In this document: one piece after another, positions 3,001 to 47,647 of the stretch
Layout of the letters: each line of letters opens with the position of its first letter
Position numbering within the stretch: position 1 is the first letter of the stretch
Source of the DNA: Parcubacteria group bacterium
GTDB taxonomy: Bacteria; Patescibacteriota; Minisyncoccia; Moranbacterales; UBA2206
Reading direction: 5' to 3'
Length of the DNA stretch: 62,182 bases
Assembly (NCBI GenBank): GCA_041675165.1
Contig: JBAYUI010000003.1
Location: 1 to 62,182 of the forward strand
The notes under the pieces: generated by a model
Told to the model about the DNA's origin: nothing
The model's input: only the letters and a program-made list of their open reading frames with translations
The model's database searches: none
Made by a program: the position numbers and the translations under genes

Positions 3001-3467
3001 GTGAAAAACACACCGGGGCTTCTTATAATCTGACTGACCACCACTCTTTCCACTCCGTTTATGATGAATGTGCCTCGCTCGGTCATCAGCGGGAAATCGC
3101 CCAGATACACCTCTTGCTCTTTCACCTCTCCGGTCTTTTTGATAATCAGTTGGACTTTGCAGCGTAAAGGCGCTTCATAAGAGATATTTTTGCTCTTGGC
3201 CAGCACTTCATCATATTTCGGTTCGTCCAGATAATATTCGCCAAAAGACAATTCCAAATCTTTTTCCGTGAAATCCGCAATCGGGTTGACTTCTTGCAAA
3301 AGTTCCTTGAGGCCTTTCTCCAAAAACCAATCGTATGAATCAGTCTGCGATTCGATCAAGTTCGGCAGAGACACCATCGACATGGTTTTGAAAAATTTTC
3401 GCTTGGACAAGGACGATTCTGAGCTGAAAATTTTCTTAACTTTCAACTTTTTTTCAATTTTAGTCAT
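63..3467 (-). CDS. rpoB: DNA-directed RNA polymerase subunit beta
   Basis: 1134 aa; hallmark motifs GTFIINGVERVVVSQ, GRICPVETPEGPNIGL, GDKLAGRHGNKGV, GGQRFGEMEVWALEGY. Confidence 0.99.
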   Translation of the reverse strand: MTKIEKKLKVKKIFSSESSLSKRKFFKTMSMVSLPNLIESQTDSYDWFLEKGLKELLQEVNPIADFTEKDLELSFGEYYLDEPKYDEVLAKSKNISYEAPLRCKVQLIIKKTGEVKEQEVYLGDFPLMTERGTFIINGVERVVVSQIIRSPGVFFTMNYVKGKKLFGAKIIPNRGAWLELETDFDGAIFVKIDRKRKIAITSLLRAFGYSNDKSLTEIFKDIDNGETRYIEKTIEKDATKSQGEGYKEVYKRIRPGDLATESNAKSVVDSMFFSFEKYDFGGVGRYRLNQRLDIEMPDDEAHRILTKEDLNLIIKEIIRLNNDPMSMADDIDHLGNRRVRSVGELIQNKLRVGFARTVRNIKDRMSTCDLLTVVPGQLVNSRPIAAAIKEFFSSSQLSQFMDQVNPLAELEHKRRISAMGPGGLTRERAGFEVRDVHPSHYGRICPVETPEGPNIGLVGHLATYTRVNSYGFLETPYLKIYHEVKNEKELLIGKILDEKVGEFSAGTKVDENMAEKISKIKEKKTVKIKPWISQEIDYLNATKEDRKNIASSGIDVDDDGNIMAEILGARVKSQATEIEASKLDYIDVSAKQCISVATALIPFLEHDDANRALMGSNMQRQAVSCVKPESPIVGTGIEDKAAADSGQVVISKAAGEIVEVDADHIIVKEEAPAGAKKPYIKREYRLQTFVKSNAFTSMNQIPRVAKGQVVKKGQLLADGASTDNGELSLGQNIMVAFIPWEGSNYEDAIIISEKLVQDDRYSSIHIEDFSIDVRDTKLGPEVVTRDIPNIGEERLKNLDETGIIRIGAEVSSGDILVGKISPKGEGDLTSEERLLRAIFGEKSRDVKDSSLYLPHGEYGKVVDIKIFSREQGDKLSTGVIQQIQVSVAQLKKISVGDKLAGRHGNKGVISRVAPVEDMPYLPDGTPVDMILNPLGVASRMNIGQILETHLGWAGLKLGYKAATAPLDGVTEDQIRAELKKAGLPETGKIKLINGRTGDFFDNESTVGVMYVMKLHHLVDDKIHMRSIGPYSLITQQPLGGKAQFGGQRFGEMEVWALEGYGAAYTLQEMLTIKSDDVMGRSKAYESIIKGEVIKSPNIPASFHVLVSELKGLGLNVELTGAKSEEEGEKEEQNI

Positions 3468-4051: not shown

Positions 4052-4843
4052 TTACTTTTCTTTCCCTCCAACCTTCCCCCAATCAAAATTCCACGGGTCG
4101 TCTTTGCGATCCGGAGCGATGTCGGAGTGGCCGAGGACGTATTTGATGTTATGTTCCCCTTTCAAGTAACTAATGAGACTTTTGAGCGCGCTATATTGAG
4201 CGGAATTAGGACTGTCTGATTTCGTTTCCACCACTTCAATACCGATGGAAAAATTGTTGACATTCGTGCGGCCGTCCGGCATCTTGGAGACTCCGGCGTG
4301 ATAGGCAATGTTCTGATCCGCCACTAAACGGTACACTTTGCCATCGCGGCCGATGATATAGTGCGGCGAAACGCCGTTCGGCTTGTATTCTTTGTTGATA
4401 ATATCATCCAAATCATATTCATCGCTGCCGACAGCGTTGTACGACGAATGGATGACAATGGTATCAATTTTTCTTCCGCTAGATTTGGCAAATCCCCAGC
4501 TGACCAAACGGTCGGTGATTTTGAATTTAGGAGTACTCACCGAGGCAGAATCCGCATTTTTATCGGCATTTTCTGGCACTGTGGCCACAGGAGCAGTAGT
4601 GTCCGCAGAACCTTCTTTAGTGGCAGCCGCGGGAGATTCTACTTTCTGATAATCATCCGCTTGAGGTTGCTGCGTATCCACAGAATTATTATTCTTCGCA
4701 TTCTCTTCCGCCGGAGCTTGCACTGCTTGATCATTATTCAAATTTATTTCCGTTTTTTTGGCCACATTCCCAAAAGAACACCCAGAAAAAACCCCAGCGG
4801 CCAAGACAACATATACTAATTTTATATTCAGATATTTTTGCAT
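4052..4843 (-). CDS. N-acetylmuramoyl-L-alanine amidase (Amidase_2), putative lipoprotein
   Basis: Lipobox-like FSGC; low-complexity linker; IVIHSS, VSPHYIIGRDG, IAYHAG, SIGIE, GHSDIAPDRKDDP catalytic motifs. Confidence 0.9.
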   Translation of the reverse strand: MQKYLNIKLVYVVLAAGVFSGCSFGNVAKKTEINLNNDQAVQAPAEENAKNNNSVDTQQPQADDYQKVESPAAATKEGSADTTAPVATVPENADKNADSASVSTPKFKITDRLVSWGFAKSSGRKIDTIVIHSSYNAVGSDEYDLDDIINKEYKPNGVSPHYIIGRDGKVYRLVADQNIAYHAGVSKMPDGRTNVNNFSIGIEVVETKSDSPNSAQYSALKSLISYLKGEHNIKYVLGHSDIAPDRKDDPWNFDWGKVGGKEK

Positions 4844-5972: not shown

Positions 5973-6028
5973 GTTGGTTATTAAATTACCGCGCGACTGC
6001 ACGTTCATAATACAATCTCCCACATTTT

Positions 6029-6760
6029 TTATTTTCCGCAAACATACAGACACGGGTCAATCCAGTCGGAAAGCGCAGCCTTGCTTTGCACGTAGCCCAA
6101 AATGCTGACCGCCGCCCCTTCATAGATTCCAAGGTGCAAGTGTTTTCTCTCGCCACTTGTCTCTGCGCTTTTGTTAGCACCTAAAATTCCCAGTGTATCG
6201 CCAGCCACCAATTTGTCCCCAACTTTGACAGGGATGCTTGAAAGTTTCAAATGGCCATACACGACCGTAATGGGAGCGCCGTTCAATGTGCACGTCTCCA
6301 CTGCCACCCCGCCGTAGCCCGAGGCATATTCTTTGAGTAGAAGTTTTCCATTGCAAATAGCATTCACTTGCACATCAGCCTTCAGTTCTTCCGGAAAAAT
6401 TTCAAAATCAGTGCCTGTATGATAGCCATGAAATTTTTCCGGTTGCACCGGGGAAGTTTGCGGGGTGATGAAAATGCCAAATGGTTTTTTCGTAACACGT
6501 TCTGCAGCCCGTGACAAAGGCGGCATAAAACCAGGCACCTTAACATCCGCAGGATTATTCTGTCCACCCATAACTGGGGCTGATTGAGCAGAATTCGCCG
6601 ACATAGTTTCGTTATTCACGACACTATTTTGTCCGGATAGTATTTTTTGTGACACTGGAATTGCTGGCGACATCAGGTGAAAACGAAACCGCGAAAAAAC
6701 AACTGCTGCAATTATTGCCAGCAACAAAAGAAATAATAAAATTATTTTTTTCTTGGTCAT
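6029..6760 (-). CDS. M23 family metallopeptidase with N-terminal membrane anchor
   Basis: HTGTD and HLHLG zinc motifs, YGHL; hydrophobic N-terminus. Confidence 0.9.
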   Translation of the reverse strand: MTKKKIILLFLLLLAIIAAVVFSRFRFHLMSPAIPVSQKILSGQNSVVNNETMSANSAQSAPVMGGQNNPADVKVPGFMPPLSRAAERVTKKPFGIFITPQTSPVQPEKFHGYHTGTDFEIFPEELKADVQVNAICNGKLLLKEYASGYGGVAVETCTLNGAPITVVYGHLKLSSIPVKVGDKLVAGDTLGILGANKSAETSGERKHLHLGIYEGAAVSILGYVQSKAALSDWIDPCLYVCGK

Positions 6761-30765: not shown

Positions 30766-31614
30766 ATGAACATTGGTTGTCATGTATCAATTGCAGGAGG
30801 AATTTTCAACGCTCCAGAGCGTGCGGCCGACCTTGGTGCGGAATGCTTCCAAATCTTCACCCGCTCCCCGCAGGGTGGCAAAGCGCCAGAATTAACGCCT
30901 GAAGTTTTAGAAAAATTTTCCGCTGAAATGAAAAAACATAAGCTGGAAAATTTTGTCGTACACACGCCCTATTACATCAACTTCGTTTCCGCCAACAATC
31001 GCGTGCGCTATGGCTCAGTTTCGGTCGTGCGTGACGAACTGGAACGCGCTTCCCTTCTCGGCGCCAGATTTGTTATGACCCATCTGGGCAGTGCCGGCGA
31101 CTTGGACGAAAAAGAGGCCACCGCCAAAACCGCCGAGATGATCGCCAAAACTCTGGACGGCTATACTGGCTCGACCGAACTCCTCATCGAAAATGCGGCT
31201 GGTGCCGGTCATATCATGGGCGCCACATTTTCACAAATTGCGGAAATCATTAGGCTCGTCAACCACCCAAAACTAAATGGGATTTGTATGGACACCCAAC
31301 ACTCCTTCGCCTCCGGCTACGATTGGCGCAAACTTAATGATGTACGGACAGGTCGCGACCTGTCCCTCCTTGAACAAATCGACCAAGAAATCGGCTTAAA
31401 AAAAATAAAACTCATCCACGCCAACGATTCCCTGACTGAATGCGGCTCCAAAAAGGACCGCCACGCCCACATCGGCGAAGGACTCATCGGTGCTGATGCT
31501 TTTCAAAATATAGTCGCCTTTGCCGAAAAGAATAATATCGATATGATTTTGGAAACGGAACATGGCAAAGTGGTGGAAGATATTGAACTGCTAAAATCTT
31601 TTCGCGCAAAATAA
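30766..31614 (+). CDS. nfo: Endonuclease IV
   Basis: IGCHVSIAGG, FQIFTRSPQ, VHTPYYIN, LIENAAG, CMDTQHSFASGY, IHANDS, DRHAHIGEG, ILET. Confidence 0.96.
   Translation: MNIGCHVSIAGGIFNAPERAADLGAECFQIFTRSPQGGKAPELTPEVLEKFSAEMKKHKLENFVVHTPYYINFVSANNRVRYGSVSVVRDELERASLLGARFVMTHLGSAGDLDEKEATAKTAEMIAKTLDGYTGSTELLIENAAGAGHIMGATFSQIAEIIRLVNHPKLNGICMDTQHSFASGYDWRKLNDVRTGRDLSLLEQIDQEIGLKKIKLIHANDSLTECGSKKDRHAHIGEGLIGADAFQNIVAFAEKNNIDMILETEHGKVVEDIELLKSFRAK
31342..31369. repeat. REP-like palindrome inside nfo
   Basis: gtac-ggacaggtcg|cgacctgtcc-ctcc; perfect 20-bp core at 31346-31365; encodes VRTGRDLSL. Confidence 0.65.
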
Positions 31615-32175
31615 TTTTTCTATCAGTTGTGGCAGGCGCTGACTGCTGAATCTTTTTAGATATTTTTTGATCTTATCTTTGTCTAACAACTTCAAATTCA
31701 TTTCTGCCGCGTCAAATTTGGCATAGCCATTCAGCGACAGATAAGCCAGATCCAAAAAAGCTTTCTCTGGTTCAGCGACTAAATAATTTTCTTTAAGCAT
31801 GTAGCCAAAATATAAATCTTTTTGTAGGTGGCGATAATTGATAATCTTATCCCCGATTTCTAAAGTTTTGGCCCGTTTCACAGTGACCAGCGTTAAGGCA
31901 TATGTCTTTTGGCTCAAAATATCATCTTGCCCTAAGACCCACTCTAAAGATAAATAACTCGGCGCATAAATTTCCAACGCCAATTTCGGCCAATCAACCT
32001 TGGCTTTATCCAGGCAATAATAGCCTTTTGCTAACGGACTTAATTTTCCAGCCTTAACCAAGCGACTGACCGTCACGCGTAAACTCGCGTCGTCCAGCTG
32101 CGCAATCTTTCGCAGATCAGAAAAAGTAAAATAGCTTTTCTGGATCTTATTCAGTTGTTTTTCCAAGTTGCTCAT
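31591..32175 (-). CDS. abiEi: Type IV TA antitoxin, AbiEi-like (wHTH)
   Basis: YFTFSDL...LRVTVSRLVKAGKL..LAKGYY; PSYLSLEWVL; AEPEKAFLD. Confidence 0.82.
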   Translation of the reverse strand: MSNLEKQLNKIQKSYFTFSDLRKIAQLDDASLRVTVSRLVKAGKLSPLAKGYYCLDKAKVDWPKLALEIYAPSYLSLEWVLGQDDILSQKTYALTLVTVKRAKTLEIGDKIINYRHLQKDLYFGYMLKENYLVAEPEKAFLDLAYLSLNGYAKFDAAEMNLKLLDKDKIKKYLKRFSSQRLPQLIEKLFCAKRF

Positions 32176-32842
32176 ACAATTGTCTTATGACTGGATAATA
32201 TTTCTTTGGCAAAAAAACTTTCAGCTCATTTTCAAATTCTCTTTTTCGGTACTGTGGTGTTTTTTTTGGCATCACAAAATTTTCTCGCAAAGTCTGGGCA
32301 ATATACCACAAGTCAAAAATGTCTCGCCCCTTCTTGCGTCCCGCCAGAGCTGCTTCTTTCAATCGTTGTAATTCTTTAAGTGTCGGCACGAGTAGCAGCG
32401 GTTCCGCCGCACTCATCGGACTTTTCACCAGCGCTAATTCTGTTTCTATTTTTGGTTTATGCTCAGGCTTATGCGCCTCAATCTTAATCGAAAACGCATG
32501 CTTCAGTTTTTCATCCTTGAGATTGATTAGCGCGAACATTGTCTGACGTTTATCCTTGATATCTTTCAATGTCCAGCTATCTTGTCTTTCCATCAAGCTG
32601 GCTATAAATTTTCCAAATTCAGCAAAGCTCGTTTTTTTCATCACTAATAAATCGATATCTTCTGAAAATCTGGGCGAACCATACACCAGGCGCAAAGCTG
32701 TGCCGCCATAAAAAACCCACTTGGCGCTCAGTTTATCCTTGGCGAACTCAGCCAAAATCTCCATTTCCGCCTCTTCCCTCAGGATCTGGTCGCGCGCAAT
32801 CCCCAATTCCCGAATATATTCATTTAATTGATTTTCGTTCAT
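32147..32842 (-). CDS. abiEii: Type IV TA toxin, AbiEii-like nucleotidyltransferase
   Basis: FYGGTALRLVYGSPRFSEDIDL, K..AL.GR..GRDIFDLW; overlaps abiEi. Confidence 0.88.
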   Translation of the reverse strand: MNENQLNEYIRELGIARDQILREEAEMEILAEFAKDKLSAKWVFYGGTALRLVYGSPRFSEDIDLLVMKKTSFAEFGKFIASLMERQDSWTLKDIKDKRQTMFALINLKDEKLKHAFSIKIEAHKPEHKPKIETELALVKSPMSAAEPLLLVPTLKELQRLKEAALAGRKKGRDIFDLWYIAQTLRENFVMPKKTPQYRKREFENELKVFLPKKYYPVIRQLYEQLGKTTE

Positions 32843-35774: not shown

Positions 35775-35781
35775 AAAATTG

Positions 35782-35855
35782 AGGTCGCGGTGGGATTTGC
35801 ACCCACGAAATAGCGGTTTTGCAGACCGCCGCGTTAGCTACTTCGCCACACGACC
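35782..35855 (-). tRNA. tRNA-Cys(GCA)
   Basis: GCGGT-CTGCAAA-ACCGC; U discriminator; 5' end overlapped by the LAGLIDADG ORF. Confidence 0.93.
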
Positions 35856-36571
35856 TTATGCTTTTTTATTATTTTTTTCACCTCCTCATCGCTTCTTTTC
35901 GGCCTCAAAATAAAATATTCACAAAATTTTACATATTTTCTTCTTAGAAATTCTAACCCCTTTTTGCCGTAGATAAATTTAAAAATCTTTATACTATCCT
36001 CAGTCGAAAAAGCCAACATAAAAGATTTACATCCGTTATAAACTTTTTCTTGCTTAGTGTTTATAATATTTTTTGTTTTTTTAGCCAACGCTTCTAAAAA
36101 TTCTTTACTACCGCAAGTAAACACGACCCTTAGCCCCTTTATTATCTCCTCATCATCTTTATTCCTCCCCTTTCTTAATAATACACAGCCATCCCCATCA
36201 AAATATCCCAAAATAAAACTACTTAAATATTTTTTCGGTACATCTGGAAATTTTATTGTTAAAGATTTTTTCGGGAATAATCCAAGCCTCGTTAAATCAT
36301 CATACAAGACATGACTTCCGATTCTTAGAAGATATTGTTTTTGTCTTTTACTGTTAGGATGTTCCGTTTCAATTATATTATGTTCGGAAGATAGCCACTT
36401 TTTTATTCTTAATATATTTTCTCTGTCTACACTAGAAACCCTGACATATTTACCACGCAGATAACTAGCATCTTCAAGACTGCCATCAGCATATAAATAC
36501 CCCAAAACGTAGGCCATCTTATGCGACCATCTTTTGAAAAAATTTTCATTCACAGCATACTTTATTCCCAT
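35834..36571 (-). CDS. Free-standing double-motif LAGLIDADG endonuclease-like protein
   Basis: AYVLGYLYADGS and SFILGYFDGDGC motifs; AT-rich. Confidence 0.9.
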   Translation of the reverse strand: MGIKYAVNENFFKRWSHKMAYVLGYLYADGSLEDASYLRGKYVRVSSVDRENILRIKKWLSSEHNIIETEHPNSKRQKQYLLRIGSHVLYDDLTRLGLFPKKSLTIKFPDVPKKYLSSFILGYFDGDGCVLLRKGRNKDDEEIIKGLRVVFTCGSKEFLEALAKKTKNIINTKQEKVYNGCKSFMLAFSTEDSIKIFKFIYGKKGLEFLRRKYVKFCEYFILRPKRSDEEVKKIIKKHKVVWRSS

Positions 36572-39427: not shown

Positions 39428-39967
39428 TCATTCTTCAATCCGTTTTTTCCATTCCTTGGCTCGAATTTGTATGCTATCGAGAAGACCCGTCTTGCCACTA
39501 TAATAAGCTGCATAATTATCCCGATAAGAAGCGTACAAATCACGCTTAGTTGAAGCATAAAGTTCGCGATCTTTTTTATTCACTCGCATATAGTCTCTAA
39601 AAGTCTTATACTCCTCGATCCTAGGATTGCCCTTTTGGAGCGTATGGACACTCACTAGGCGATTTCCTTCCGGTGAGTCTTTAGTGAAATATTCATCGCC
39701 TTTCCTGGTATATCCTTGGCCACGTGGCACATATCCAAGTCTTATAAAAGATTCATAGCAATCCTTGACCACATCTAATTTCTTCACCACCACCAATATA
39801 TCTATTTGCGGTTTTGCGATCATTCCTTCAATCGAAGTGCTGCCTATATGTTCAATTTCAACGAGATTATCGCCGAAAATCGGTTTCAGCTCTTCTGCCG
39901 CAGCCAAAAACCGCCTTCTCCAAAGAGGATCATATTCCTTAAGCTCATATGGGCGATGTGGAACCAT
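39428..39967 (-). CDS. GrpB family nucleotidyltransferase-fold protein
   Basis: YDPLW, IEHIGSTSIEGMIAKPQIDI, FRDY, Y...K, Y..GK. Confidence 0.92.
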   Translation of the reverse strand: MVPHRPYELKEYDPLWRRRFLAAAEELKPIFGDNLVEIEHIGSTSIEGMIAKPQIDILVVVKKLDVVKDCYESFIRLGYVPRGQGYTRKGDEYFTKDSPEGNRLVSVHTLQKGNPRIEEYKTFRDYMRVNKKDRELYASTKRDLYASYRDNYAAYYSGKTGLLDSIQIRAKEWKKRIEE

Positions 39968-40052
39968 AATGATTTTATCCGAAAAACAAATCAATAGATT
40001 TCTCTAACTACGATAGACTAATGATATCAAAAGTTTCCATTGTTTGCCAACA

Positions 40053-40130
40053 AAAAACAAGACCTTTTTTAGTCTTGTTTTTCTATTTGGGCAGTTTAGT
40101 TAATACGGTGAGAAATGGATTTATGAAAAA
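40053..40130 (+). mobile_element. att-like hybrid repeat R1 (hairpin + tgggc core + conserved tail)
   Basis: aaaaacaagac..gtcttgttttt ctatt tgggc agtttagttaatacggtgagaaatggatttat; tail nearly identical to R2. Confidence 0.65.
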
Positions 40131-40246
40131 AGACCCTTCTTTTTAACTATACCAAAACAGTGCAATTGGTCAATTTACTTTTATAATCTTACTAGCAAGG
40201 TAAAACAGCTGAAACTGGCTTTATGGCAATCAATTAATCAAAGCAC

Positions 40247-41986
40247 CTAACCTTTATTTTTTGTTAGTGTATAAATTAACCTAGAGTTAGCGCCATCTCC
40301 AATTTCCATATATTTTATCTTATTATATTCAGAAGAATAGTATAATAAGCCTCTTTTTTTCTTCTTGTATTCTCCATTCACCAAGGAAGTTCCATTTTTT
40401 TCATATATATCAATTACCGAGCTATCATTAAATATTTTTCCATTAAGCCTAAAATATTCTTCATAATCATAGCTCAACAGCTTTCTGCTTATATTCCAGT
40501 TCGCTGTAATTTCATTGTCAATCACATCAATTTTAAAAATAACCCCATCTTCTGACAGCCATTCCCCAGAGACAGTTCTTAGAAGATTCCCCTTTATAAA
40601 CTTGGCCTCAGTAAAATTTAAAATAAATCTACGTAATAATAAGGCTTCGCGTATTTTTTCCTTTTCTATGTCGCTTTCTTTTTCAATTTTCTTTGGAATT
40701 TCAGACAAAGCCTCGTTCACATTTTGATGAACATTTTCTTTTCCCCTTGCTGAATTAAGAAGCTCTTTCGCTTCAGAAACAAACCCTATATTTAATAATC
40801 TGTACGCCAAGTTTGCACTTGCCAATGTGTTTCCTAGCTTCTCAGCCTCCTTATAGCTTTCGATTGATTTTATTGGCATTTGTAAATTATCATATTGAAC
40901 ACCAATATTATTCTGAACAGAGTCGTCTTTTGGATTTATACTCTTTGCATTTTTATAATGCAAAAGTGCTATTTCATCATATTTACCCTCTGCATACGAA
41001 TATCCAGCCTTAAATAGAAGTGCCGAATCGTTTGGTTTTAATTCTACTGCTTTGTCTATAGCAAATGCCTTATTTTCATAATCCTTTTCCTTGTCATATA
41101 TATCAGCCAATGCCTCATATATTCTGACCTTAGATTCATCATCTTGTACATTGGATAACACTTCACTTAAAACATTAACGGCTTCATCCATTTTATTATA
41201 TTTATACAAAATCACTGATAAATTTTGGACTGCTAATGATTTTTCATTATCATTAATTGCTAGTTTTAATGCTTGGTAATAAAAAAGCTCTGAATTTTTT
41301 AAATCATCAGAAATTTCATAGCAATAACCGATTGCCATATTAACCGCATGCATGATATCTCGACTGTTCAATAATCCCTTTAATTTGCTTATAGCGGTAG
41401 TGTCACCCAACTTATGGGATAATTCTAAATATAAAATTTCATCCTTTTTATTGTCGCCACCAAGTTCAAGCATTTTTTTATAGGCTGTATCCATTTTTTC
41501 TTTATCCTTATTAAGAATAGCAGCTATAAACATTTCTCTCTCCCAGTCATCCTTGGTAATGGGTTCTCTATCATTCTTTTTTTCTTGCTCCCTGCTTCCT
41601 TCTATATATTCATCATCACTTATTTGTTCTTCTTTTTTGTTTTGCTTGTTTGTCGCTCCTATTTCATCGCACGCTTCAGCCTCAATTCCTTTTTCTCCCG
41701 CACTAAACTTTTTCATTCTGCCAATAAACTTAGCGATTTGCTTATAAAATACGAAAATAAAAAAAATTAAGAATACTAATACCGCAAATGGCCAACCCAT
41801 TTGAAACAAAGAAGTATAAAATTCATTTTGACCAGAATTTTCCAGATTTTTCGAGTTAAGTCCGTTTTCTGGAACACTAAGAACACTTTTGTATAAAAAG
41901 AATGATACCAAAAATATTCCCAGCAAAAGAAATACAATTTTTTTATTAAGACCTATATATTTTAGAATAGAGACACCTCTTACCAT
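40247..41986 (-). CDS. Membrane-anchored TPR-repeat protein
   Basis: Two N-terminal TM helices; TPR-like units (KAVELKPND..LLFKAG; NPKDDSVQNNIG); very AT-rich. Confidence 0.75.
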   Translation of the reverse strand: MVRGVSILKYIGLNKKIVFLLLGIFLVSFFLYKSVLSVPENGLNSKNLENSGQNEFYTSLFQMGWPFAVLVFLIFFIFVFYKQIAKFIGRMKKFSAGEKGIEAEACDEIGATNKQNKKEEQISDDEYIEGSREQEKKNDREPITKDDWEREMFIAAILNKDKEKMDTAYKKMLELGGDNKKDEILYLELSHKLGDTTAISKLKGLLNSRDIMHAVNMAIGYCYEISDDLKNSELFYYQALKLAINDNEKSLAVQNLSVILYKYNKMDEAVNVLSEVLSNVQDDESKVRIYEALADIYDKEKDYENKAFAIDKAVELKPNDSALLFKAGYSYAEGKYDEIALLHYKNAKSINPKDDSVQNNIGVQYDNLQMPIKSIESYKEAEKLGNTLASANLAYRLLNIGFVSEAKELLNSARGKENVHQNVNEALSEIPKKIEKESDIEKEKIREALLLRRFILNFTEAKFIKGNLLRTVSGEWLSEDGVIFKIDVIDNEITANWNISRKLLSYDYEEYFRLNGKIFNDSSVIDIYEKNGTSLVNGEYKKKKRGLLYYSSEYNKIKYMEIGDGANSRLIYTLTKNKG

Positions 41987-42224
41987 AAAAGATACCAGAA
42001 TAATTTAATAATTTAAGGATACCACCCTAAAACATTAAAAACAAGCCTCGTATGTTCAATATTAACTCAAATTTATTTTACAAAATCCGCGACCAAACAT
42101 TATGTTTTCCGTTATTTGAAACCTTTTTTCGTTTGATTGAGATGTTTTTGCTTTGAATAAGCCTGTTTTTAGGACAAATTACCTCAAGCCAACCCGATGA
42201 TTGCCTTGTTTAAGACAAATTCTG

Positions 42225-42254
42225 TTGACATATAAATATTATAAAGCATATACT
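42225..42254 (+). promoter_or_regulatory. Sigma70-type promoter upstream of the ParB-like gene
   Basis: ttgaca-N18-tatact. Confidence 0.6.
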
Positions 42255-42365
42255 AAATAGCAGGAGGGAACAGCAACGAACCTTGTCCTTTAACCGTCAT
42301 TTTTGTCAATTTACCGCTTTTGCAACGATTTTCCATCAACCACCAACATTCGAGAGGAGGATCCA

Positions 42366-43253
42366 ATGAACACCAGCGCACAAATTATTCCGATTCGTCA
42401 AGAAATGCCAGTGACAGGATTACCGAGTGTTCCAGTGTCTTCGATCAGACGATTCAAAGATCAACCGCGAATCATATTCGATCAAGACAAGCTCAAGGCG
42501 CTTGCAGACAGTATCAAAGAATACGGCTTGCAACAGCCCATCAGTGTCGTCGTGCTCAGGGGTGATGAGCAACATGATTATGAGCTTAAGGATGGCGAAC
42601 GCAGATGGCTCGCACATCAAATTGCCGGAATCGAACGCATCGACGTTATTATCGACCACGAAACAAGACCGGGGACGCAGCACCTCCAATCTCTCATCGC
42701 GAATTTCAATAGAGAAGGCCATACCTATATGGAAACCTCCAACGCGCTCGTTAAAGAGAAACAGAATGGGGTGCCGGCTGAATCTCTGGCAACGGCCTGC
42801 GGCAAATCGGTTGGTTGGGTCTATCAACATCTTGCACTGCAAAATCTCCACCCTGATCTGCAAAAACTGCTAAACGCAGGGAGCAACAAGAAAAAACTTC
42901 GGTTTAATCCAGCGTATGAATTGTCAAAACTTCCACTGGAACAACAAGTGTCTGCCTACAATAAGATGCGAAAAATCCCTGGAGCAGCTGAAAGGATTAA
43001 CTTTATCAAATCTAAAGGCGGCAATCCGATTGCGCCACGCGCGAAAAGGCCAGCACGAGAAGCAAAAAGTTTGAAAAATTTGGTTTACATGGTGAAATCC
43101 GGCGTTGAAAGATTTGCCAATCTAAAGAAAACTGATTTCAAGGCAATGATGGAAAAGCTTGAGCCTGCGGAAATTCCTGCTTTGATTAGTCAATTGAAAG
43201 CAGGTGCAGAATCATTGCAAGAATTGGCAAGTTTTGTGGAGAATTTTCAATGA
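42366..43253 (+). CDS. ParB/RepB/Spo0J-family protein without ParA
   Basis: QPR..FD...L.ALA.SIKEYGLQQPI; KDGERRWLA; ANFNRE; HTH; SD gaggagg before MNTSAQ. Confidence 0.88.
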   Translation: MNTSAQIIPIRQEMPVTGLPSVPVSSIRRFKDQPRIIFDQDKLKALADSIKEYGLQQPISVVVLRGDEQHDYELKDGERRWLAHQIAGIERIDVIIDHETRPGTQHLQSLIANFNREGHTYMETSNALVKEKQNGVPAESLATACGKSVGWVYQHLALQNLHPDLQKLLNAGSNKKKLRFNPAYELSKLPLEQQVSAYNKMRKIPGAAERINFIKSKGGNPIAPRAKRPAREAKSLKNLVYMVKSGVERFANLKKTDFKAMMEKLEPAEIPALISQLKAGAESLQELASFVENFQ

Positions 43254-43329
43254 GTAATGTCGTTACAGAACCAGCAACATGATCCTCAGTCACACCATTC
43301 GTGATTGGGGATTTATTTTTTTGCAAAAC

Positions 43330-43409
43330 AAAAACAGCCACTTTCAAGGCCGTTTTTGCTGTTATGAGCAGTTTAGTTCATACGGTGAGAAATGGATTTA
43401 TAGAAAAAA
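43330..43409 (+). mobile_element. att-like hybrid repeat R2
   Basis: aaaaacagcc..ggccgttttt gctgtta tgagc agtttagttcatacggtgagaaatggatttat. Confidence 0.65.
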
Positions 43410-43434
43410 CTTTATTTTCCGGGTAACTTAAATC

Positions 43435-43755
43435 TTATTTCCAAACTCTTTTTTTGTTCAATTCTTCCTTTTCCCTAAATGCCTGCTCTAAATCAATATC
43501 GAACCGATTGGCGATTGTACAAATCAGAATGATAACATCGGCCAGTTCTTCATCAATTGAGCCGAACTTGGAATTATGATCCACTTTAGTTACCTTATTT
43601 TTTTTTCTTACCGACTTAAACAATTCACCGATTTCTTCGCCCAAAAGCAAGCATTTCTGGGAAACATCCTCTTTTTCAAAACCTCGTTCTTTTTCCAATT
43701 CCCGAACATATTCCTGAAAATCTTTTAGAGTAGGGATTTCTTTTAAAATTGGCAT
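43435..43755 (-). CDS. MazG-like nucleotide pyrophosphohydrolase
   Basis: LGEEIGELFKSVRK and IDEELADV acidic motifs. Confidence 0.9.
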   Translation of the reverse strand: MPILKEIPTLKDFQEYVRELEKERGFEKEDVSQKCLLLGEEIGELFKSVRKKNKVTKVDHNSKFGSIDEELADVIILICTIANRFDIDLEQAFREKEELNKKRVWK

Positions 43756-43908
43756 AATTTTTTTTAATTCATTTTAGTAAAATTATCTCCCTCTAGTATA
43801 TCATAAAAAAATCAAGGTGTGAGCGTATCGCCCACACCTTTTTGCATTCCAGTTTTCTGGTTATAAAAGTTTCTCAAACTCCTTTCTGATGTAAGCAATT
43901 AAAAAATC

Positions 43909-43987
43909 AAAAAACGGCCTTACAAAGCCATTCTATTAATTTGGAGCTGGCTAGTACATACAGTTAGAACTGGATTTATGGATAAAA
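43909..43987 (+). mobile_element. att-like hybrid repeat R3 (more diverged)
   Basis: aaaaaacggccttacaaagccatt..ggagc tggctagtacatacagttagaactggatttatg. Confidence 0.55.
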
Positions 43988-44079
43988 GCCTTATCTGAGC
44001 TCAGTGTTCAAAAATGAAATTCGAGCCATTTTCAAAAGATAAGGTTGCATTCGAATCAATGAATTATTATAAGTGACTC

Positions 44080-44589
44080 CTAATTCCCATTGTAGGCATT
44101 TTGTAATTTTGCCATGTCAATCTTTTTCATCTCCAATACTGCCGCCATAACTCTTTCGACCTTGTTCTTGTCTTTATCTTGAAGCATTTTTTCAATAAAC
44201 GCAGGTCCTATTTGCCAAGACAGGCCAAATCGATCTTTGAGCCAGCCACACACTTGAGCATTTTCATCCCCACCTTCCTTCAGTGCATCCCAATAATAGT
44301 CGATTTCTTTTTGTGTATCGCAATTTATAACTAAGGAAAAAGCTTCGGAAAGTCTAAATGGCTCTCCACCATTAATGGCAGTAAAATTTTGCCCAGCCAA
44401 ATTGAAAGATACTGTCATTACGGATCCAGCTGGTTTCCCAGAAACTTTTTCTGTCACTTTAGGATAGTGGCTGATACCGAAAATTCCTGCTTTTTCACCA
44501 GCCTTGGTGAAAACTGAAACATAGAACTCAGCTGCTTCCTTAGCCTCATCATTAAACCAAATAAATGGGGTTATTTTTTGCATTTGCAT
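44080..44589 (-). CDS. VOC/PhnB-like protein (3-demethylubiquinone-9 methyltransferase-like family)
   Basis: KITPFIWF, A.EFY.SVF, AINGG, CGWLKDRFGLSWQI, MKKID. Confidence 0.92.
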   Translation of the reverse strand: MQMQKITPFIWFNDEAKEAAEFYVSVFTKAGEKAGIFGISHYPKVTEKVSGKPAGSVMTVSFNLAGQNFTAINGGEPFRLSEAFSLVINCDTQKEIDYYWDALKEGGDENAQVCGWLKDRFGLSWQIGPAFIEKMLQDKDKNKVERVMAAVLEMKKIDMAKLQNAYNGN

Positions 44590-44607
44590 ATGTTTTCAAT
44601 TAATTGT

Positions 44608-44994
44608 TTAGAGGCTGACAATTGATTTGAAACCTCCATAAGCCATACGCTTCATATCAAAAGGCATGACTATATCTTTATTTTTTGGATCGTTCATTGT
44701 TGGATCTTTCATCATTTTTGCATTGACCGCATCTCTGTGAGCGCGTGATTTGTAAACAATGAAAGAAAACACAACAGTCTCGCCTTTCTTGACTTTGGCC
44801 AACTCAGGAAACTTTACAAAACTCATCCCGTCCATCCCCATCATCTTAGGATTCAAGTCATCTCCAACCGCTTCGATATAATCAAGGGCGCCATATTTTT
44901 TCATTAATTTTACCATTGGCAAGGCCATCTTACGATACTCTGGCAGTTTTTTTATAGGAACCGGAAGAACAAAACCATCTATATATTTTGTCAT
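44608..44994 (-). CDS. DUF1428 family protein
   Basis: YIDGFVLPVP, YGALDYIE..GDDL, ETVVFS, HRDAVNAK.M.D, MPFDMKRMAYGGF. Confidence 0.9.
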   Translation of the reverse strand: MTKYIDGFVLPVPIKKLPEYRKMALPMVKLMKKYGALDYIEAVGDDLNPKMMGMDGMSFVKFPELAKVKKGETVVFSFIVYKSRAHRDAVNAKMMKDPTMNDPKNKDIVMPFDMKRMAYGGFKSIVSL

Positions 44995-45044
44995 ATTATT
45001 ATGTATTATAAGTTATAAAATATACTACAATTAAGTTATCAAAT

Positions 45045-45290
45045 TTATTTATCATCCTTTGCAGATCTGTATTTCAATAAACGAAAAACTCCCTTGGAAG
45101 GTTTATATACCTTTTCTGGATATTTTGATATTAGTTTCCAGATACTGCCATTAATTGTTTTTGGATGAAAACTTGAATCAGATGCTTTAACTTTTGAGAG
45201 CAACTCTGACCAACGCAAACCAGCAGGATATTGTTCGAGCAATTCAAATATTGTTTCATTCATACGATCTGTAATTGTGAGATTACTCAT
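45045..45290 (-). CDS. Small winged-helix hypothetical protein
   Basis: 81 aa; helical N-half ending VYKPSKGVFRL, a wing-like motif. Confidence 0.6.
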   Translation of the reverse strand: MSNLTITDRMNETIFELLEQYPAGLRWSELLSKVKASDSSFHPKTINGSIWKLISKYPEKVYKPSKGVFRLLKYRSAKDDK

Positions 45291-45341
45291 ATTTACAAAG
45301 TTATAAAATCTTAGTTTAAATACTGTCAGATTTTTGAAAAA

Positions 45342-45935
45342 TTAAGATGATACTGTTTCCACCTTACCGGCACGTTCATAGTTTGCAATAATAACACCAC
45401 TTGGCGATATTTTACTATAAGATAATTTGAATGCTGCTGGAATCGTGCCTTCAGCAAATAAGCGTTTGCCCGTACCAATCGTGATGGGAAATATTTTAAG
45501 CCACAATTCATCTACCAAATCATTCTCAAGCAATGTCTGAACAAGATTGCCACTGCCCCAAACTTGAATGTCGCCGCCTTTTGATTGTTTAAGTTTTTTT
45601 ATATCCGACAGACTGCTCAAAAATACTGAGTTTTTCCAATCTGACTTTTTCATTGTATTAGACATAATATATTTTGTGCCATCATTGATGCCTGGCCAAA
45701 TTTCTGCATGCTGCGGCCAGTAGCTGGCAAAAATATCAAATGTTTTTCTACCTAAAAGATACTCCGCAGGTTCCATCTGTTTACCCATCTCTTGACCCAA
45801 GTCTTTGTCTTTATCAAAGTACGGAGTCGCCCAACCGCCAAACTTAAAACCCTCACTTGCGTCTTCCCTGGAGCCACCAGGTGCTTGCATTATTCCATCC
45901 AATGTCACAAACTCGATTACGATTATTTTTCTCAT
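45342..45935 (-). CDS. Dihydrofolate reductase-like (RibD C-terminal) protein
   Basis: FVTLDGIMQAPGG, LLGRKTFD, IQVWGSGNLVQTL...DLVDE, GTGKRLF. Confidence 0.92.
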   Translation of the reverse strand: MRKIIVIEFVTLDGIMQAPGGSREDASEGFKFGGWATPYFDKDKDLGQEMGKQMEPAEYLLGRKTFDIFASYWPQHAEIWPGINDGTKYIMSNTMKKSDWKNSVFLSSLSDIKKLKQSKGGDIQVWGSGNLVQTLLENDLVDELWLKIFPITIGTGKRLFAEGTIPAAFKLSYSKISPSGVIIANYERAGKVETVSS

Positions 45936-45954
45936 ATTATTTTATTTTTTAGTT

Positions 45955-46344
45955 TTATTCTGGCTTCCAATCTGTTCCTTGCATCAAGGCAAAACGATTA
46001 CCTTCAGTGTCCTTAGCGCTAGCAAACCAGCCCACGCCCTTAAGTTCACTCTTTTCCCTCGTAATTACACCGCCATTCGCCTTAACCATCTCAATCGCAT
46101 TATCAATATTTTCAACCAAAATTGTGTCATCATAAGTATAAATCTTATCATCTTCTGGCCTCTTATACATGCCACCTCCTATACCTGGGCCTTTACCGGT
46201 GTCCAACATCCAATAATCCATAGGATCTCCTTTTTCTGTCGACATTGCCTGATTAATTTTCCAACCAAAAGTATTCTCATAGAACTTTTTTGCTCGTTCC
46301 GCATCATCTGCTTGAATTTCAAAATGTATTATTCTGTTACTCAT
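45955..46344 (-). CDS. VOC/glyoxalase family protein
   Basis: IIHFEI.ADD.ERAKKFY...FGW, IGGG, GVGWFA..KDTEGNRFAL. Confidence 0.92.
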   Translation of the reverse strand: MSNRIIHFEIQADDAERAKKFYENTFGWKINQAMSTEKGDPMDYWMLDTGKGPGIGGGMYKRPEDDKIYTYDDTILVENIDNAIEMVKANGGVITREKSELKGVGWFASAKDTEGNRFALMQGTDWKPE

Positions 46345-46504
46345 ATATTTATGTATTAAATTTAATTAATCCTGAACTTACATTCATGTATAATTAATAC
46401 GAAAAAATAACAGATATATTTCGTGATTTCTGCAGCTTTCAGTTCTGATATTTGTTTTGGATACAAAAAAACAGGCTTTAAACAAAGCCTGTTTTTTAAT
46501 TTTG

Positions 46505-46576
46505 AGCGGGTAACGGGAATCGAACCCGTGTCACTAGATTGGCAACCTAGTGTAATAGCCACTATACGATACCCGC
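46505..46576 (-). tRNA. tRNA-Gly(GCC)
   Basis: CTAGG-TTGCCAA-TCTAG; U73; no encoded CCA; downstream hairpin at 46465-46497. Confidence 0.95.
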
Positions 46577-46578
46577 TT

Positions 46579-47265
46579 TTAGCTATAATCAGATTTTAAA
46601 CCATCTATCCAGCCGATAACTTTAAAAAATAATTTTACATCATTTATTCTAATGTGAACAGTGCCGTGAGTCAAGCTGTCTTCATCTCTTTTGCCTTGAC
46701 TTGATTTGCTTACCGAACAACACGTTTTGATGAATTGGTCTTGTGGAATATTTGTCAGGCTAGACCAGTACGTCACTGACTTTTCAATATCCACGTTTTT
46801 ATGCGCTATCAGCTGGACTTTTATCTTATCTTCTTTAATTTTTAAAAATTTTTTGAAAAATCTTACCATGATCACTACCATCTTCGGATCAGAATTGGTA
46901 AAATCTATCGCTTTCCATTTACTGCCTTGTGCGCCCTTCTTATATCCTTCCGCCCAATATAAAGAAATTCCAACCAAAAATAATTTATCTTTTTTTAAGA
47001 TAGAAAACTCTTTTTTTGCCAGGGAGCGAATTTTAGCTGCCCTTTCCTTGGCCAATTTCGTCTGGTTCCTATTTCTATTTATGAGTCCCTTGACACTACC
47101 TTCAAAAACTCTGCTTGCCAATCTTTTTTTCGCTTTCTGAGAAATTTCGATACCTGCCAACCAATAGCTCAATGTGCTTTTAGGAACTTTCAGCCTATCT
47201 CCTATTTCATTATAGCTGTACCCTTGTTTTCTTAGTTTTACAGCTTGCAGTTTATCTTTTCTCAT
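46579..47265 (-). CDS. HTH + degenerate LAGLIDADG-like protein
   Basis: N-terminal HTH (LRKQGYSYNEI..RLKVPKSTLSYW); GISLYWAEG; FTNSDP..V; stop 2 nt before tRNA-Gly. Confidence 0.75.
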   Translation of the reverse strand: MRKDKLQAVKLRKQGYSYNEIGDRLKVPKSTLSYWLAGIEISQKAKKRLASRVFEGSVKGLINRNRNQTKLAKERAAKIRSLAKKEFSILKKDKLFLVGISLYWAEGYKKGAQGSKWKAIDFTNSDPKMVVIMVRFFKKFLKIKEDKIKVQLIAHKNVDIEKSVTYWSSLTNIPQDQFIKTCCSVSKSSQGKRDEDSLTHGTVHIRINDVKLFFKVIGWIDGLKSDYS

Positions 47266-47324: not shown

Positions 47325-47641
47325 TGGTGCCGGGTCCCAGGATTGAACTGGGGACACAAGGATTTTCCTTGATAATTTTTCTTGGATTTCCCCAAGGATC
47401 GGACTATTTCATCATCCTGAAATAAAATCAGGAGTTGGGCGCTATTGCAAGATTATTGTTGGGACTCACTTGCTAGTCTCTACACTTTCCTCAAAACTTA
47501 AACCCTCTGAGGCTTAGCTCGAGATTACCTTATTGTTTTTCAACAACTTAGGCTTCCTCGAATTCACCCAATTTTCATTTCCAAATTACTCTGGAACGGA
47601 CCGAAAATCAGTCCTCTGCTCTACCACTGAGCTAACCCGGC
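47325..47641 (-). tRNA. tRNA-Phe(GAA), intron-containing (exons 47610-47641 and 47325-47367)
   Basis: Joined exons give GAGGA-CT|GAAAA-TCCTT and a full cloverleaf with CCA. Confidence 0.93.
47368..47609 (-). ncRNA. Group I self-splicing intron (242 nt, no ORF) after U33 of tRNA-Phe
   Basis: P1 GGACU/GGUCC with U.G at the splice site; terminal G; P3 UUGGGUG/CGCCCAA; P7 GACUA/UAGUC; P2, P8 and P9 hairpins. Confidence 0.9.
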
Positions 47642-47647
47642 CCTTAT

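Follow-up and report, generated by a model that had tools for sequence, protein, structure and literature searches.

Downstream of a tRNA-Gly(GCC) gene in a Parcubacteria group bacterium, three small groups of genes are bounded by copies of a short repeat, which raises the question of what this repeat is and how such modules came to be lined up at one tRNA. To our knowledge, mobile DNA and gene flow in Patescibacteria are poorly charted. We analysed the locus within a stretch of 62,182 nucleotides (contig JBAYUI010000003.1), hereafter the window. The original prediction, made from the letters of the window alone, proposed successive site-specific integrations at the acceptor end of the tRNA, with a repeat that could encode the C-terminus of a recombinase. 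This reading proved largely right, and we consider it very probable that the array arose by accretion where one family of Moranbacteria/Patescibacteria integrative elements, which use a large serine recombinase (LSR), has its attachment site.

Junctions and modules at the tRNA-Gly gene

Four junctions in the window have the common layout that had been proposed for them, in which a hairpin is followed after 12-14 nt by the core GAGC, or more generally G(A/G)GC (Table 1). This distance, taken from the end of the stem, equals the 5-8 nt given originally once the T-run is subtracted. At three junctions the core continues into a conserved tail of ~50 nt, and at the fourth into tRNA-Gly(GCC), where the shared core is the complement of tRNA positions 71-74 (discriminator/acceptor end). 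A 28-nt degenerate consensus matches the 62 kb exactly three times, at the three tail copies, with no match expected from 100 shuffles. The additional copy near J1 is uncertain, as only a weak nhmmer match (E=1.3) was obtained for it.

The module genes that had been named from the translations agree with Pfam. In Module 1, the ParB gene runs in the direction an LSR gene would have and has a GC content of 0.46-0.48, compared with 0.31-0.34 in adjoining genes. The claim that no recombinase gene is present also stands for the 62-kb window, where Pfam and further domain searches revealed no recombinase domain; the rest of the genome was not seen. A second sample carries an array identical to that of the window and provides no variant. 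The ends of a Logan contig (L002; window 39933-46529) were considered as island boundaries, but one end lies inside GrpB and they are therefore ordinary assembly breaks. A 228-aa HTH protein encoded beside tRNA-Gly was rejected as a recombinase candidate, given that it has no catalytic domain match (Pfam, NCBIfam, PDB) and is absent from locus L010, which nevertheless has an array. It was used as a synteny marker and led to locus L028, which is described below.

Table 1. Features of the array in the window. P0187 and P0174 are LSRs of relatives.
Feature	Position	Strand	Details
J1, distal array end (attR-like)	40003-40146	+	hairpin 40053-40082; core GGGC 40089-40092; tail 40096-40146; translation YLGS-LVNTVRNGFMKKDPSF-stop; nhmmer E=7e-14; tblastn to P0187 aa 506-547
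Possible decayed extra tail copy	40196-40228	+	22/30 consensus matches; QGKTAETGFM vs LVNTVRTGFM
Module 1	40247-43253		TPR protein and ParB_N protein (Pfam, NCBIfam)
TPR protein, Module 1	40247-41986	-	579 aa
ParB_N protein, Module 1	42366-43253	+	295 aa
J2, LSR 3′ remnant	43310-43426	+	hairpin 43329-43358; core GAGC 43366-43369; tail 43373-43426; translation FCKTKTATFKAVFAVMSS-LVHTVRNGFIEKTLFSG-stop; nhmmer E=4e-13; tblastn to P0187 aa 515-548, 62% identity, E=4e-5
Module 2	43435-43755	-	lone MazG-like gene, 106 aa (Pfam MazG)
J3, LSR 3′ remnant	43882-43998	+	hairpin ~43912-43935; core GAGC 43944-43947; tail 43951-43998; translation WSW-LVHTVRTGFMDKSLI-stop; nhmmer E=7e-16; tblastn to P0187 aa 513-550, 47% identity
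Module 3	43951-46503	-	five small genes, all in tRNA direction (ORFs, Pfam)
3-dmu-9_3-mt/VOC, Module 3	44080-44589	-	ORF, Pfam
DUF1428, Module 3	44608-44994	-	ORF, Pfam
81-aa ORF, Module 3	45045-45290	-	ORF list
RibD_C, Module 3	45342-45935	-	ORF, Pfam
Glyoxalase/Ble-like, Module 3	45955-46344	-	ORF, Pfam
J4 (attL-like), remnant of LSR 3′ end reading into tRNA	46451-46513	+	hairpin 46466-46497; core GAGC 46504-46507; translation FVLDTKKQALNKACFLILSG-stop; 13/20 identical to LSR C-terminus FALDKTKTAQSKAVFELLSG (P0174; counted by hand)
tRNA-Gly(GCC), attachment target	46504-46576	-	ARAGORN; Rfam tRNA 64.2 bits, full length

The repeat and the recombinase gene

The tail occurs in ~26 distinct copies on other contigs (Patescibacteria/Moranbacteria). 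The motif was recovered at 5 metagenome and 12 GTDB genome loci, always with the hairpin-GAGC-tail layout; all are Patescibacteria-type, including four that bear another label. Viral contigs, phage records and plasmid records yielded no match. Wherever a tRNA is in reach, the tail is invariably found on the downstream side of tRNA-Gly(GCC) and with unchanged orientation, frequently in arrays of 3-5 (by profile search, five copies in L020, 3-4 each in L010 and L008, and three in L029), and this tRNA also anchors arrays in L007, L010, L018, L020, L023, L026-L028 and L031-L033. Both flanks are kept in relatives, with a UDG / tRNA-Leu(TAA) / tRNA-Cys / 3D-protein block on one side and tRNA-Gly(GCC) / tRNA-Phe or Met / tRNA-Val / tRNA-Leu(GAG) / L19 on the other. 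The gene content between tRNA-Gly and the motif is different in every relative, which is the variability that the original prediction had proposed to look for.

The tail evolves like coding sequence ending in LVNTVRTGFMNKSFV-stop, and the codon-conservative differences originally noticed among the window copies are upheld on the 26 copies from other contigs. Variable sites in its 29-nt core fall mostly at third codon positions, with exchanges among Arg codons (AGA/CGA), Ser codons (AGC/AGT/TCC) and stops (TAA/TAG/TGA, at one fixed codon). Such codon-like conservation with a fixed stop, the 41-aa ORF that spans each of J1 and J2, and a block start resembling an acceptor stem might also be expected if the repeat were a small gene of its own (encoding a peptide of 19-41 aa, or else a small RNA or tRNA-like RNA) that was copied beside terminators and is unrelated to mobile DNA. 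We give this idea practically no credence. The start codon is not conserved (ATG, GTG, TTG, CTG, TGG, CTA or TAG at the position), Rfam gave no family match, and a 550-aa protein (P0187) has this peptide as its C-terminus. When both strands of three junctions were folded, only terminator hairpins emerged, and a 6-bp CTAGTT/AACTGG stem showed no compensatory change. Nor is the tail a 5′ or 3′ half of a tRNA, since inspection by eye and alignment to tRNA-Gly revealed no T-arm or anticodon arm. A protein word search with three tails concatenated brought up nothing but a spurious 69-aa ORF, a false-negative outcome given that P0187 does carry the tail.

P0187 has Resolvase, Recombinase and Zn_ribbon domains, and like P0122 and P0174 it exceeds the Pfam thresholds for PF00239, PF07508 and PF13408. 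Its intact form carries the full tail (FESMSS-LVNTVRTGFMGKSFV-stop), which identifies the repeat as the 3′-terminal part of an LSR gene, as had been suspected for a recombinase in general. Homologues number 1,921 at E<=1e-10. In relatives, LSRs of 535-550 aa read through the hairpin and core into the 3′ end of tRNA-Gly, an arrangement that the original prediction had recommended searching for. At L028, a 537-aa Resolvase+Recombinase+Zn_ribbon_recom gene crosses the hairpin, enters the tRNA and terminates in AKTGVFAPVFDTMSG-stop, and L031, L032 and L033 are alike in this respect. Among the 120 best LSR homologues, 94 end in SG-stop, where SG-stop is the translated core plus acceptor stem, and 9 continue through the tRNA antisense.

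At L032, the tail motif is found 10.2 kb away, at the opposite end of the element. The attR there (CCTGAGCGGG followed by CTAGTT) and the attL (TTCTGAGCGGG followed by TAAGCAG) have CTGAGCGGG in common, and the exact crossover dinucleotide is undetermined. The contig that encodes P0187 (L030) has ends identical over 101 nt, which yields a circle of 8,511 bp, albeit from a single contig at 3.8x coverage. Its LSR gene is intact at 550 aa with a 3′ end of hairpin, GAGC and tail, in keeping with the proposal that the recombinase is complete only in circular form. Judged from sequence, the enzyme behind the tails is an LSR. Because this gene reads into the tRNA when integrated and is intact on the circular contig, attP is placed inside its last ~35 codons, and integration would remove 17 residues that remain at the far end of the element.

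These observations suggest the following mechanism. Autonomous elements of ~8.5-10 kb, as seen in relatives, carry an LSR ORF in which a short hairpin, ~13 nt, the core GAGC and 17 further codons (the tail) follow one another. Recombination at the GAGC of the discriminator/acceptor end would keep the tRNA intact and set the LSR-encoded hairpin directly behind it, while the integrated LSR would stop early at SG, the stop being supplied by the acceptor stem, with its tail stranded at the far end. Each new integration at the tRNA-proximal core would displace earlier arrivals outward, and internal junctions would thereby become hairpin-core-tail, a rebuilt attP-like LSR 3′ end. Successive integration, as first proposed, is supported by the recombinases reading into the tRNA and by the variable content of the locus. 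Crossover within GAGC is inferred, as are the ability of the LSR to recombine attP with attB at a central dinucleotide, in the absence of assay data, and termination of the tRNA transcript by the hairpin, including the J4 hairpin that would double as tRNA terminator. More speculatively, the 17-residue tail might switch the enzyme between a free form competent for integration and an integrated form.

Modules without a recombinase

Integrons and CALINs are co-oriented arrays of small cargo growing at a fixed site, and integrase-less arrays exist. The locus is similar in its co-oriented cassettes, its lack of a nearby integrase and its junction repeats, which are alike within a genome. There is a hairpin at each junction whose stem is kept while hairpin sequences differ, and the types of cargo (glyoxalase, MazG, NUDIX and toxin-antitoxin parts) are reminiscent of integrons. 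It is nevertheless highly improbable that an IntI-like or Xer-like tyrosine recombinase moves cassettes here via folded attC-like hairpins. The Phage_integrase domain is absent from the window and from every array locus examined, and no IntI beside an attI was found there. The junction also fails as an attC: the hairpin is a plain terminator-like stem that, with the conserved block, forms the 3′ end of the LSR ORF, and this block is non-palindromic coding sequence without covariation. By eye, integron R boxes (R''/R'), dif/Xer 11-6-11 sites and IS200/IS605-type end hairpins all fail to fit. Unlike in integrons, the recombination site here is a coding remnant rather than a folded attC with R/L boxes, and at least two cassettes in L020/L010 seem to have a promoter-like sequence of their own.

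If the array is instead the product of LSR-mediated accretion, the origin of its recombinase-less members must be explained. The three window modules carry no LSR and, if circularised, would rebuild just its last ~35-45 codons (attP-sized). The att-type repeats that flank these modules and the cassettes of L020 are the same as those around autonomous elements at this site, which is what characterises accretion arrays of the CIME or pseudo-SCC type. At L029, an ars cassette adjoins an LSR-bearing element, and at L008 LSR-less cassettes lie distal to an L032-type element.

The modules could be dead remnants of complete LSR elements that integrated successively and later each lost the LSR by deletion, never having moved as LSR-less cassettes. 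LSR-bearing elements do integrate at the tRNA-Gly site, the window is without an LSR, the LSR-wise ParB gene of Module 1 ends ~50 nt before the LSR remnant of J2, and lineage-specific changes (GGTGAGAAATGG) in the tails of J1 and J2 suggest age. However, random deletion predicts fragments of all lengths, and ~30 junctions hold no more than 45 codons (the last 20-45 at the four window junctions, by tblastn and translation). No junction of any locus has an LSR match upstream of aa 506, such that the gene is either whole or reduced to 45 codons or fewer. Furthermore, two MAGs (L010 and L020) have in common an LSR-less PHP cassette, with 98.3% identity over 901 nt; it occupies different array positions in them, and the shared part begins and ends at the core. 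Cassettes of only 0.6-1 kb (MazG in the window, a lipoprotein-like ORF in L007) and a hairpin-plus-promoter head common to several L020 cassettes also speak against wholesale decay, which we regard as unlikely without dismissing it.

With accretion by LSRs as the preferred reading, it can be proposed only tentatively, and with less than even confidence, that the LSR 3′ end may recreate a usable site upon each integration, making tRNA-Gly(GCC) a self-renewing capture platform for micro-cassettes of 0.6-3 kb moved in trans. That LSR-less modules were inserted, or are still movable, by an LSR from elsewhere or from a neighbouring element is inferred, and movement in trans as in an integron is an analogy that rests on one shared cassette, without demonstration. 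Neither an empty site nor a circle of an LSR-less module was found, and the short motif-bearing contigs L004, L006 and L007 lack terminal overlap. Phage-type LSRs normally do not use an attL-type hybrid site as attB. Therefore, repeated integration would require tolerance for an LSR-derived left half-site or CcrB-like behaviour. Nothing shows that the window array is active now; an LSR is absent from the 62 kb, and other parts of the genome were unseen.

Relation to known elements and biological meaning

The system belongs with known LSR elements, and its closest counterparts are the ssrA islands of Dehalococcoides and SCC elements. The former lie in tandem downstream of ssrA with short direct repeats and a conserved element-side motif, and carry a serine recombinase (DsiB, ~540 aa) beside attL, on the reverse strand and directed toward the small stable-RNA gene (PMC3146451). 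Their integration module includes a ParB-domain protein, and islands without this module have been discussed as cis-mobilizable elements acquired by accretion (PMC3146451). The likeness thus extends to recombinase size and layout, tandem islands, recombinase-less members and ParB. In contrast, integration here is directed at a true tRNA, tRNA-Gly GCC, and at its extreme 3′ end, whereas the islands use the T-loop of tmRNA. The shared core spans a mere 4-9 nt, compared with 20 bp in the islands, modules are as small as 0.6 kb, and the host is a Patescibacterium. Here attP also lies inside the recombinase ORF, so that the repeat is the recombinase's own C-terminus.

In SCC/SCCmec, a large serine recombinase drives integration at the 3′ end of a conserved gene (rlmH). 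Composite tandem arrays have short repeats between their members, and ccr-less pseudo-SCC elements persist and can be moved by Ccr from another element. LSR integration, tandem arrays and recombinase-less members are thus common to both systems, whereas the repeat of SCC derives from the 3′ end of the target gene and ours from that of the recombinase gene, and the target here is a tRNA.

An attP inside the integrase ORF is described for Mx8 IntP (PMC4383910) and SSV-type integrases (PMC7253208). In these systems, tRNA integration likewise alters or splits the integrase frame and only the free form has the intact gene, but these are tyrosine recombinases, whereas the enzyme here is a serine recombinase that would lose just 17 residues. 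The 2014 Islander paper cites ORF-embedded attP for tyrosine integrases alone and notes that no serine-family integrase was known to use a tRNA gene as its target (PMC4383910). Islands of tRNA-targeting tyrosine integrases are recognised there by tens of nucleotides of displaced tRNA 3′ sequence at the far end of the island. The locus lacks this hallmark, since the repeated portion of the tRNA end amounts to just 4-9 nt; beyond these the repeat neither aligns with tRNA-Gly nor contains a T-arm. Searches of the literature on Patescibacteria or the candidate phyla radiation for integrons, serine recombinases and tRNA-linked islands yielded nothing relevant, and the element family is not described in the papers searched.

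For the window itself the meaning is modest: it holds an orphan accessory-gene array that records past integrations. More broadly, the findings define a widespread integration system of Patescibacteria whose attB, attP, attL and attR can be read from sequence, and which unites a serine integrase at a tRNA with an ORF-embedded attP. The same DNA is put to dual use, as coding sequence for the LSR C-terminus and as a terminator-like hairpin that lands directly behind the tRNA. In practice, the motif can serve to mark the principal variable locus in these genomes, and the system is a source of natural LSR/att pairs that can be tested. tRNA-Gly is marked as a docking site used repeatedly by a family of mobile elements. 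If the platform does renew itself, each integration would again leave a terminator hairpin beside the tRNA with constant spacing to GAGC, and an LSR acting in trans would insert, shuffle and export micro-cassettes whose only part of the LSR gene is an attP-sized stretch. Such a system would correspond to the integron, but with a serine recombinase and in bacteria with very small genomes.

Junctions and modules beside tRNA-Gly(GCC)

Four identically built junctions (J1, distal, to J4, at the tRNA) lie to the left of the tRNA-Gly(GCC) gene on the plus strand, each consisting, in order, of an A-run, a hairpin, a T-run, 12–14 nt counted from the end of the stem, and a core, G(A/G)GC. The rightmost core, complementary to tRNA-Gly positions 71–74, runs on into the tRNA, and the other three are followed by a conserved tail. 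A degenerate 28-mer derived from these tails matches only those three places in 62 kb, with 0 matches expected by chance, and this result, together with the shared hairpin-spacer-core build, confirms the repeated layout described in the original prediction. The predicted content of the three modules is likewise matched by Pfam: TPR plus ParB_N; MazG alone; and VOC/3-dmu-9_3-mt, DUF1428, an 81-aa ORF, RibD_C and glyoxalase. As also predicted, the window has no recombinase gene, in that no large serine recombinase (LSR) was found anywhere in the 62 kb. The GC content of the array is 0.31–0.39, ParB excepted, and that of the flanks is 0.40–0.48. We found no RNA structure common to the junctions beyond the hairpin.

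Coordinates of features in the window and, where named, in loci L006 and L020
Feature	Position	Strand	Remark
tRNA-Gly(GCC)	46504-46576	-	attachment end of array
J1 hairpin	40053-40082	+	
J1 core	40089-92	+	LSR frame: ...FYLGS-LVNTVRNGFMKKDPSF, stop
J1 tail	40096-40146	+	
J2 hairpin	43329-43358	+	
J2 core	43366-69	+	LSR frame: FCKTKTATFKAVFAVMSS-LVHTVRNGFIEKTLFSG, stop
J2 tail	43373-43426	+	
J3 hairpin	about 43912-43935	+	
J3 core	43944-47	+	LSR frame: ...KAILLIWSW-LVHTVRTGFMDKSLI, stop
J3 tail	43951-43998	+	
J4 hairpin	46466-46497	+	
J4 core	46504-07	+	LSR frame: FVLDTKKQALNKACFLILSG, stop
228-aa HTH protein	46579-47265	-	stops 2 nt before tRNA-Gly
tRNA-Phe(GAA)	47327-47645	-	
Group I intron	47380-47619		Rfam Intron_gpI, 82.7 bits
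LAGLIDADG ORF	35834-36571	-	LGYLYADGS, ILGYFDGDG
tRNA-Cys	35781-35855		
AbiEi/AbiEii pair	31591-32842	-	
L020 shared heads, first pair	2337-2420 with 4240-4330		
L020 shared heads, second pair	3322-3400 with 5975-6049		
L006 orphan tRNA-Gly fragment	about 785-800		reverse complement

Elsewhere in the window, a group I intron splits the anticodon loop of tRNA-Phe(GAA); both exons are legible in the sequence, and the interrupted gene was missed by ARAGORN. A free-standing, double-motif LAGLIDADG ORF overlaps with its 3′ end the 5′ end of tRNA-Cys. According to precomputed Pfam annotation, a toxin-antitoxin-type AbiEi/AbiEii pair, with an N6_N4 methyltransferase nearby, sits amid otherwise housekeeping genes.

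The tail motif in related genomes

An exact-pattern scan of metagenome contigs yielded five loci, and a codon-degenerate pattern scanned against one genome per GTDB species yielded 12, all from Patescibacteria, Parcubacteria or Moraniibacteriota MAGs, including four under a doubtful ‘Bdellovibrionales’ label. These four ‘uncultured Bdellovibrionales’ MAGs (L014, L016, L017 and L019) carry the Patescibacteria motif and synteny. Since L019 matches the Parcubacteria contig L010 at 100% identity across 1,917 nt, the labels probably reflect mistakes in binning or naming. Searches of viral, phage and plasmid collections gave no match to the motif.

The layout is the same in every copy, with a conserved unit of ~57 nt: (T/G)GAGC NNN YTAGTTAATACGGTTAGAACTGGATTTATG AAT AAA AGC TTT GTT TAA. 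A profile search with the copies revealed arrays in a single orientation; wherever the tRNA could be reached, they lie downstream of tRNA-Gly(GCC). L020 has five copies, L010 and L008 have three or four each, and L029 has three; single copies lie 0.7–2.6 kb from the tRNA in L007, L018, L023, L026 and L027. The variable content anticipated for this locus in relatives was found. The flanks are kept in synteny with the window (UDG, tRNA-Leu(TAA), tRNA-Cys and a 3D-domain protein on one side; tRNA-Phe or Met, tRNA-Val, tRNA-Leu(GAG) and L19 on the other), and the stretch from tRNA-Gly to the motif holds different genes in every genome compared (among them PHP, TrmB, HD, bestrophin-like, MFS, SocA, GIY-YIG, Ham1, DUF3800, NUDIX, radical SAM, reverse transcriptase and an ars operon). 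In locus L006, an orphan 16-nt tRNA-Gly 3′ fragment (GAGCGGGTAAGCAGAA) stands behind a hairpin, with a full copy of the motif ~170 nt away, which suggests a rearranged or deleted junction.

The codon-conservative differences from which the tail had been read as the 3′ end of a gene hold over 26 distinct copies. Within a 29-nt core of the tail, most variable sites fall at the third codon position of the frame originally proposed, synonymous choices occur for Arg (AGA/CGA) and Ser (AGC/AGT/TCC), amino acids change from Val to Ile and from Arg to Lys, and a stop (TAA, TAG or TGA) falls at the same codon. Neither a conserved start codon nor a long ORF leading into the tail was found in any of these 26 copies. 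When concatenated tails were run through a word-index protein search, the only return was a spurious 69-aa ORF. This result was later shown to be a false negative; the search missed the LSR homologue P0187 despite the LVNTVRTGFM that this protein contains. Negatives from such searches are unreliable for very short conserved stretches.

A large serine recombinase that ends in the tail

Relatives were fetched by using as synteny markers the homologues of a 228-aa protein encoded beside tRNA-Gly, which has an N-terminal HTH_23 domain and ~190 uncharacterised residues. There are 343 homologues of about 227 aa, mostly from Moranbacteria; the position is conserved in L020 and L026–L028, the protein is absent in L010, and its C-terminal part has no PDB or family match.

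The gene following tRNA-Gly in locus L028 encodes, on the opposite strand, a 537-aa protein with Resolvase, Recombinase and Zn_ribbon_recom domains, an LSR architecture above Pfam thresholds. Its ORF passes through the hairpin and core into the tRNA, ending in ...LDKAKTGVFAPVFDTMSG and a stop. This LSR has 1,921 homologues (E<=1e-10), and 94 of the best 120 have a C-terminal SG, which is encoded by the core plus GGG of the acceptor stem and followed by an acceptor-stem TAA or TAG; nine of the best 120 continue through the tRNA antisense (..ESNP..). P0187, an intact form of 550 aa, carries the full tail and ends in ...DKTKTAQSKAVFESMSS-LVNTVRTGFMGKSFV. Both expectations, a recombinase that ends in the tail and one that reads into the 3′ end of tRNA-Gly, are thus met, the latter also in L032 and L033.

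Contig L030, which encodes P0187, has identical 101-nt ends, implying a circle of 8,511 bp on which a restriction-modification pair and an M78 peptidase accompany the LSR. On this contig attP, taken as ~120 bp, lies around positions 1880–1990. The full tail of P0187 on this implied circle bears out the guess that the recombinase C-terminus is whole only in the free form. P0187 also occurs on L029; there it belongs to an array, and its C-terminus is made whole again by the tail that follows. An entire integrated element, ~10.2 kb long, is present in L032 and L033, with the tail motif at one end and the LSR overlapping tRNA-Gly by 10 nt at the other (attR ..CCTGAGCGGG/CTAGTT; attL ..TTCTGAGCGGG/TAAGCAG), and L008 contains the distal part of this same element, then LSR-less cassettes. 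Small genes of 58–60 aa and 102 aa beside the LSR are conserved in three different elements (L030, L032 and L028); they have no family match and are candidates for directionality factors.

The window junctions were translated in the LSR frame and compared with FALDKTKTAQSKAVFELLSG in P0174, another homologue. In tblastn searches with LSRs, covering the window and all other loci, junctions match only from P0187 residue 506 on, and no LSR-body fragments were found at any junction. Hairpin, spacer, core and tail are therefore the last 35–45 codons of an LSR, and the three window modules bear only this attP-sized piece.

Integration and the status of the window modules

The attP site lies within the 3′ coding end of the LSR, and integration occurs at the discriminator/acceptor end of tRNA-Gly(GCC) through a shared core of 4–9 nt. 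Upon integration the LSR loses 17 residues, the tail is left at the far end, and arrays exist at this site. We infer that crossover takes place inside GAGC, because to its right the tRNA keeps GGG, whereas the tails keep TGG, AGT, TAC and others. The hairpin encoded by the LSR 3′ end would land directly behind the tRNA and may serve as its terminator, and arrays presumably grow at the tRNA-proximal core.

Comparable behaviour is known from SCC elements at rlmH. The nearest described system is that of the Dehalococcoides ssrA islands, which lie in tandem on the downstream side of the tmRNA gene and carry, beside attL on the reverse strand, a CcrB-like serine recombinase of ~540 aa; some lack an integration module and have been discussed as cis-mobilizable elements (PMC3146451). 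Among tyrosine integrases, those of Mx8 and of SSV-type elements are known to carry attP within their own ORF (PMC4383910; PMC7253208). As of 2014, tRNA genes were stated not to be known as targets of serine-family integrases (PMC4383910). We found no paper on such a system in Patescibacteria. An integron was rejected: unlike integrons, the Moranbacteria array has neither IntI nor attC architecture, and the enzyme family differs. The original interpretation was essentially correct, including its reading of the tail as the C-terminus of a recombinase; the enzyme is an LSR.

Movement of LSR-less modules has not been demonstrated, and four points favour it. Junction state is bimodal, the LSR being present in full or as <=45 codons only; modules are sometimes very small; and several L020 cassettes begin with a common hairpin-plus-promoter head. 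These heads span the first 70–112 nt of cassettes within one array and share the same hairpin and a promoter-like TTGAGC-N17-TACAAT, or a GGAGG-ATGGATGAA that starts a short ORF, which hints at a modular cassette head. Finally, L010 and L020 share a PHP cassette, with 98.3% identity across 901 nt, at different array positions; identity begins and stops at the core, and mismatches are concentrated in the junction parts. Current activity of the window array is disfavoured, because the window has no LSR, a second sample has an identical array, and neither circles nor empty sites turned up. The window modules are recombinase-less passengers or relics.
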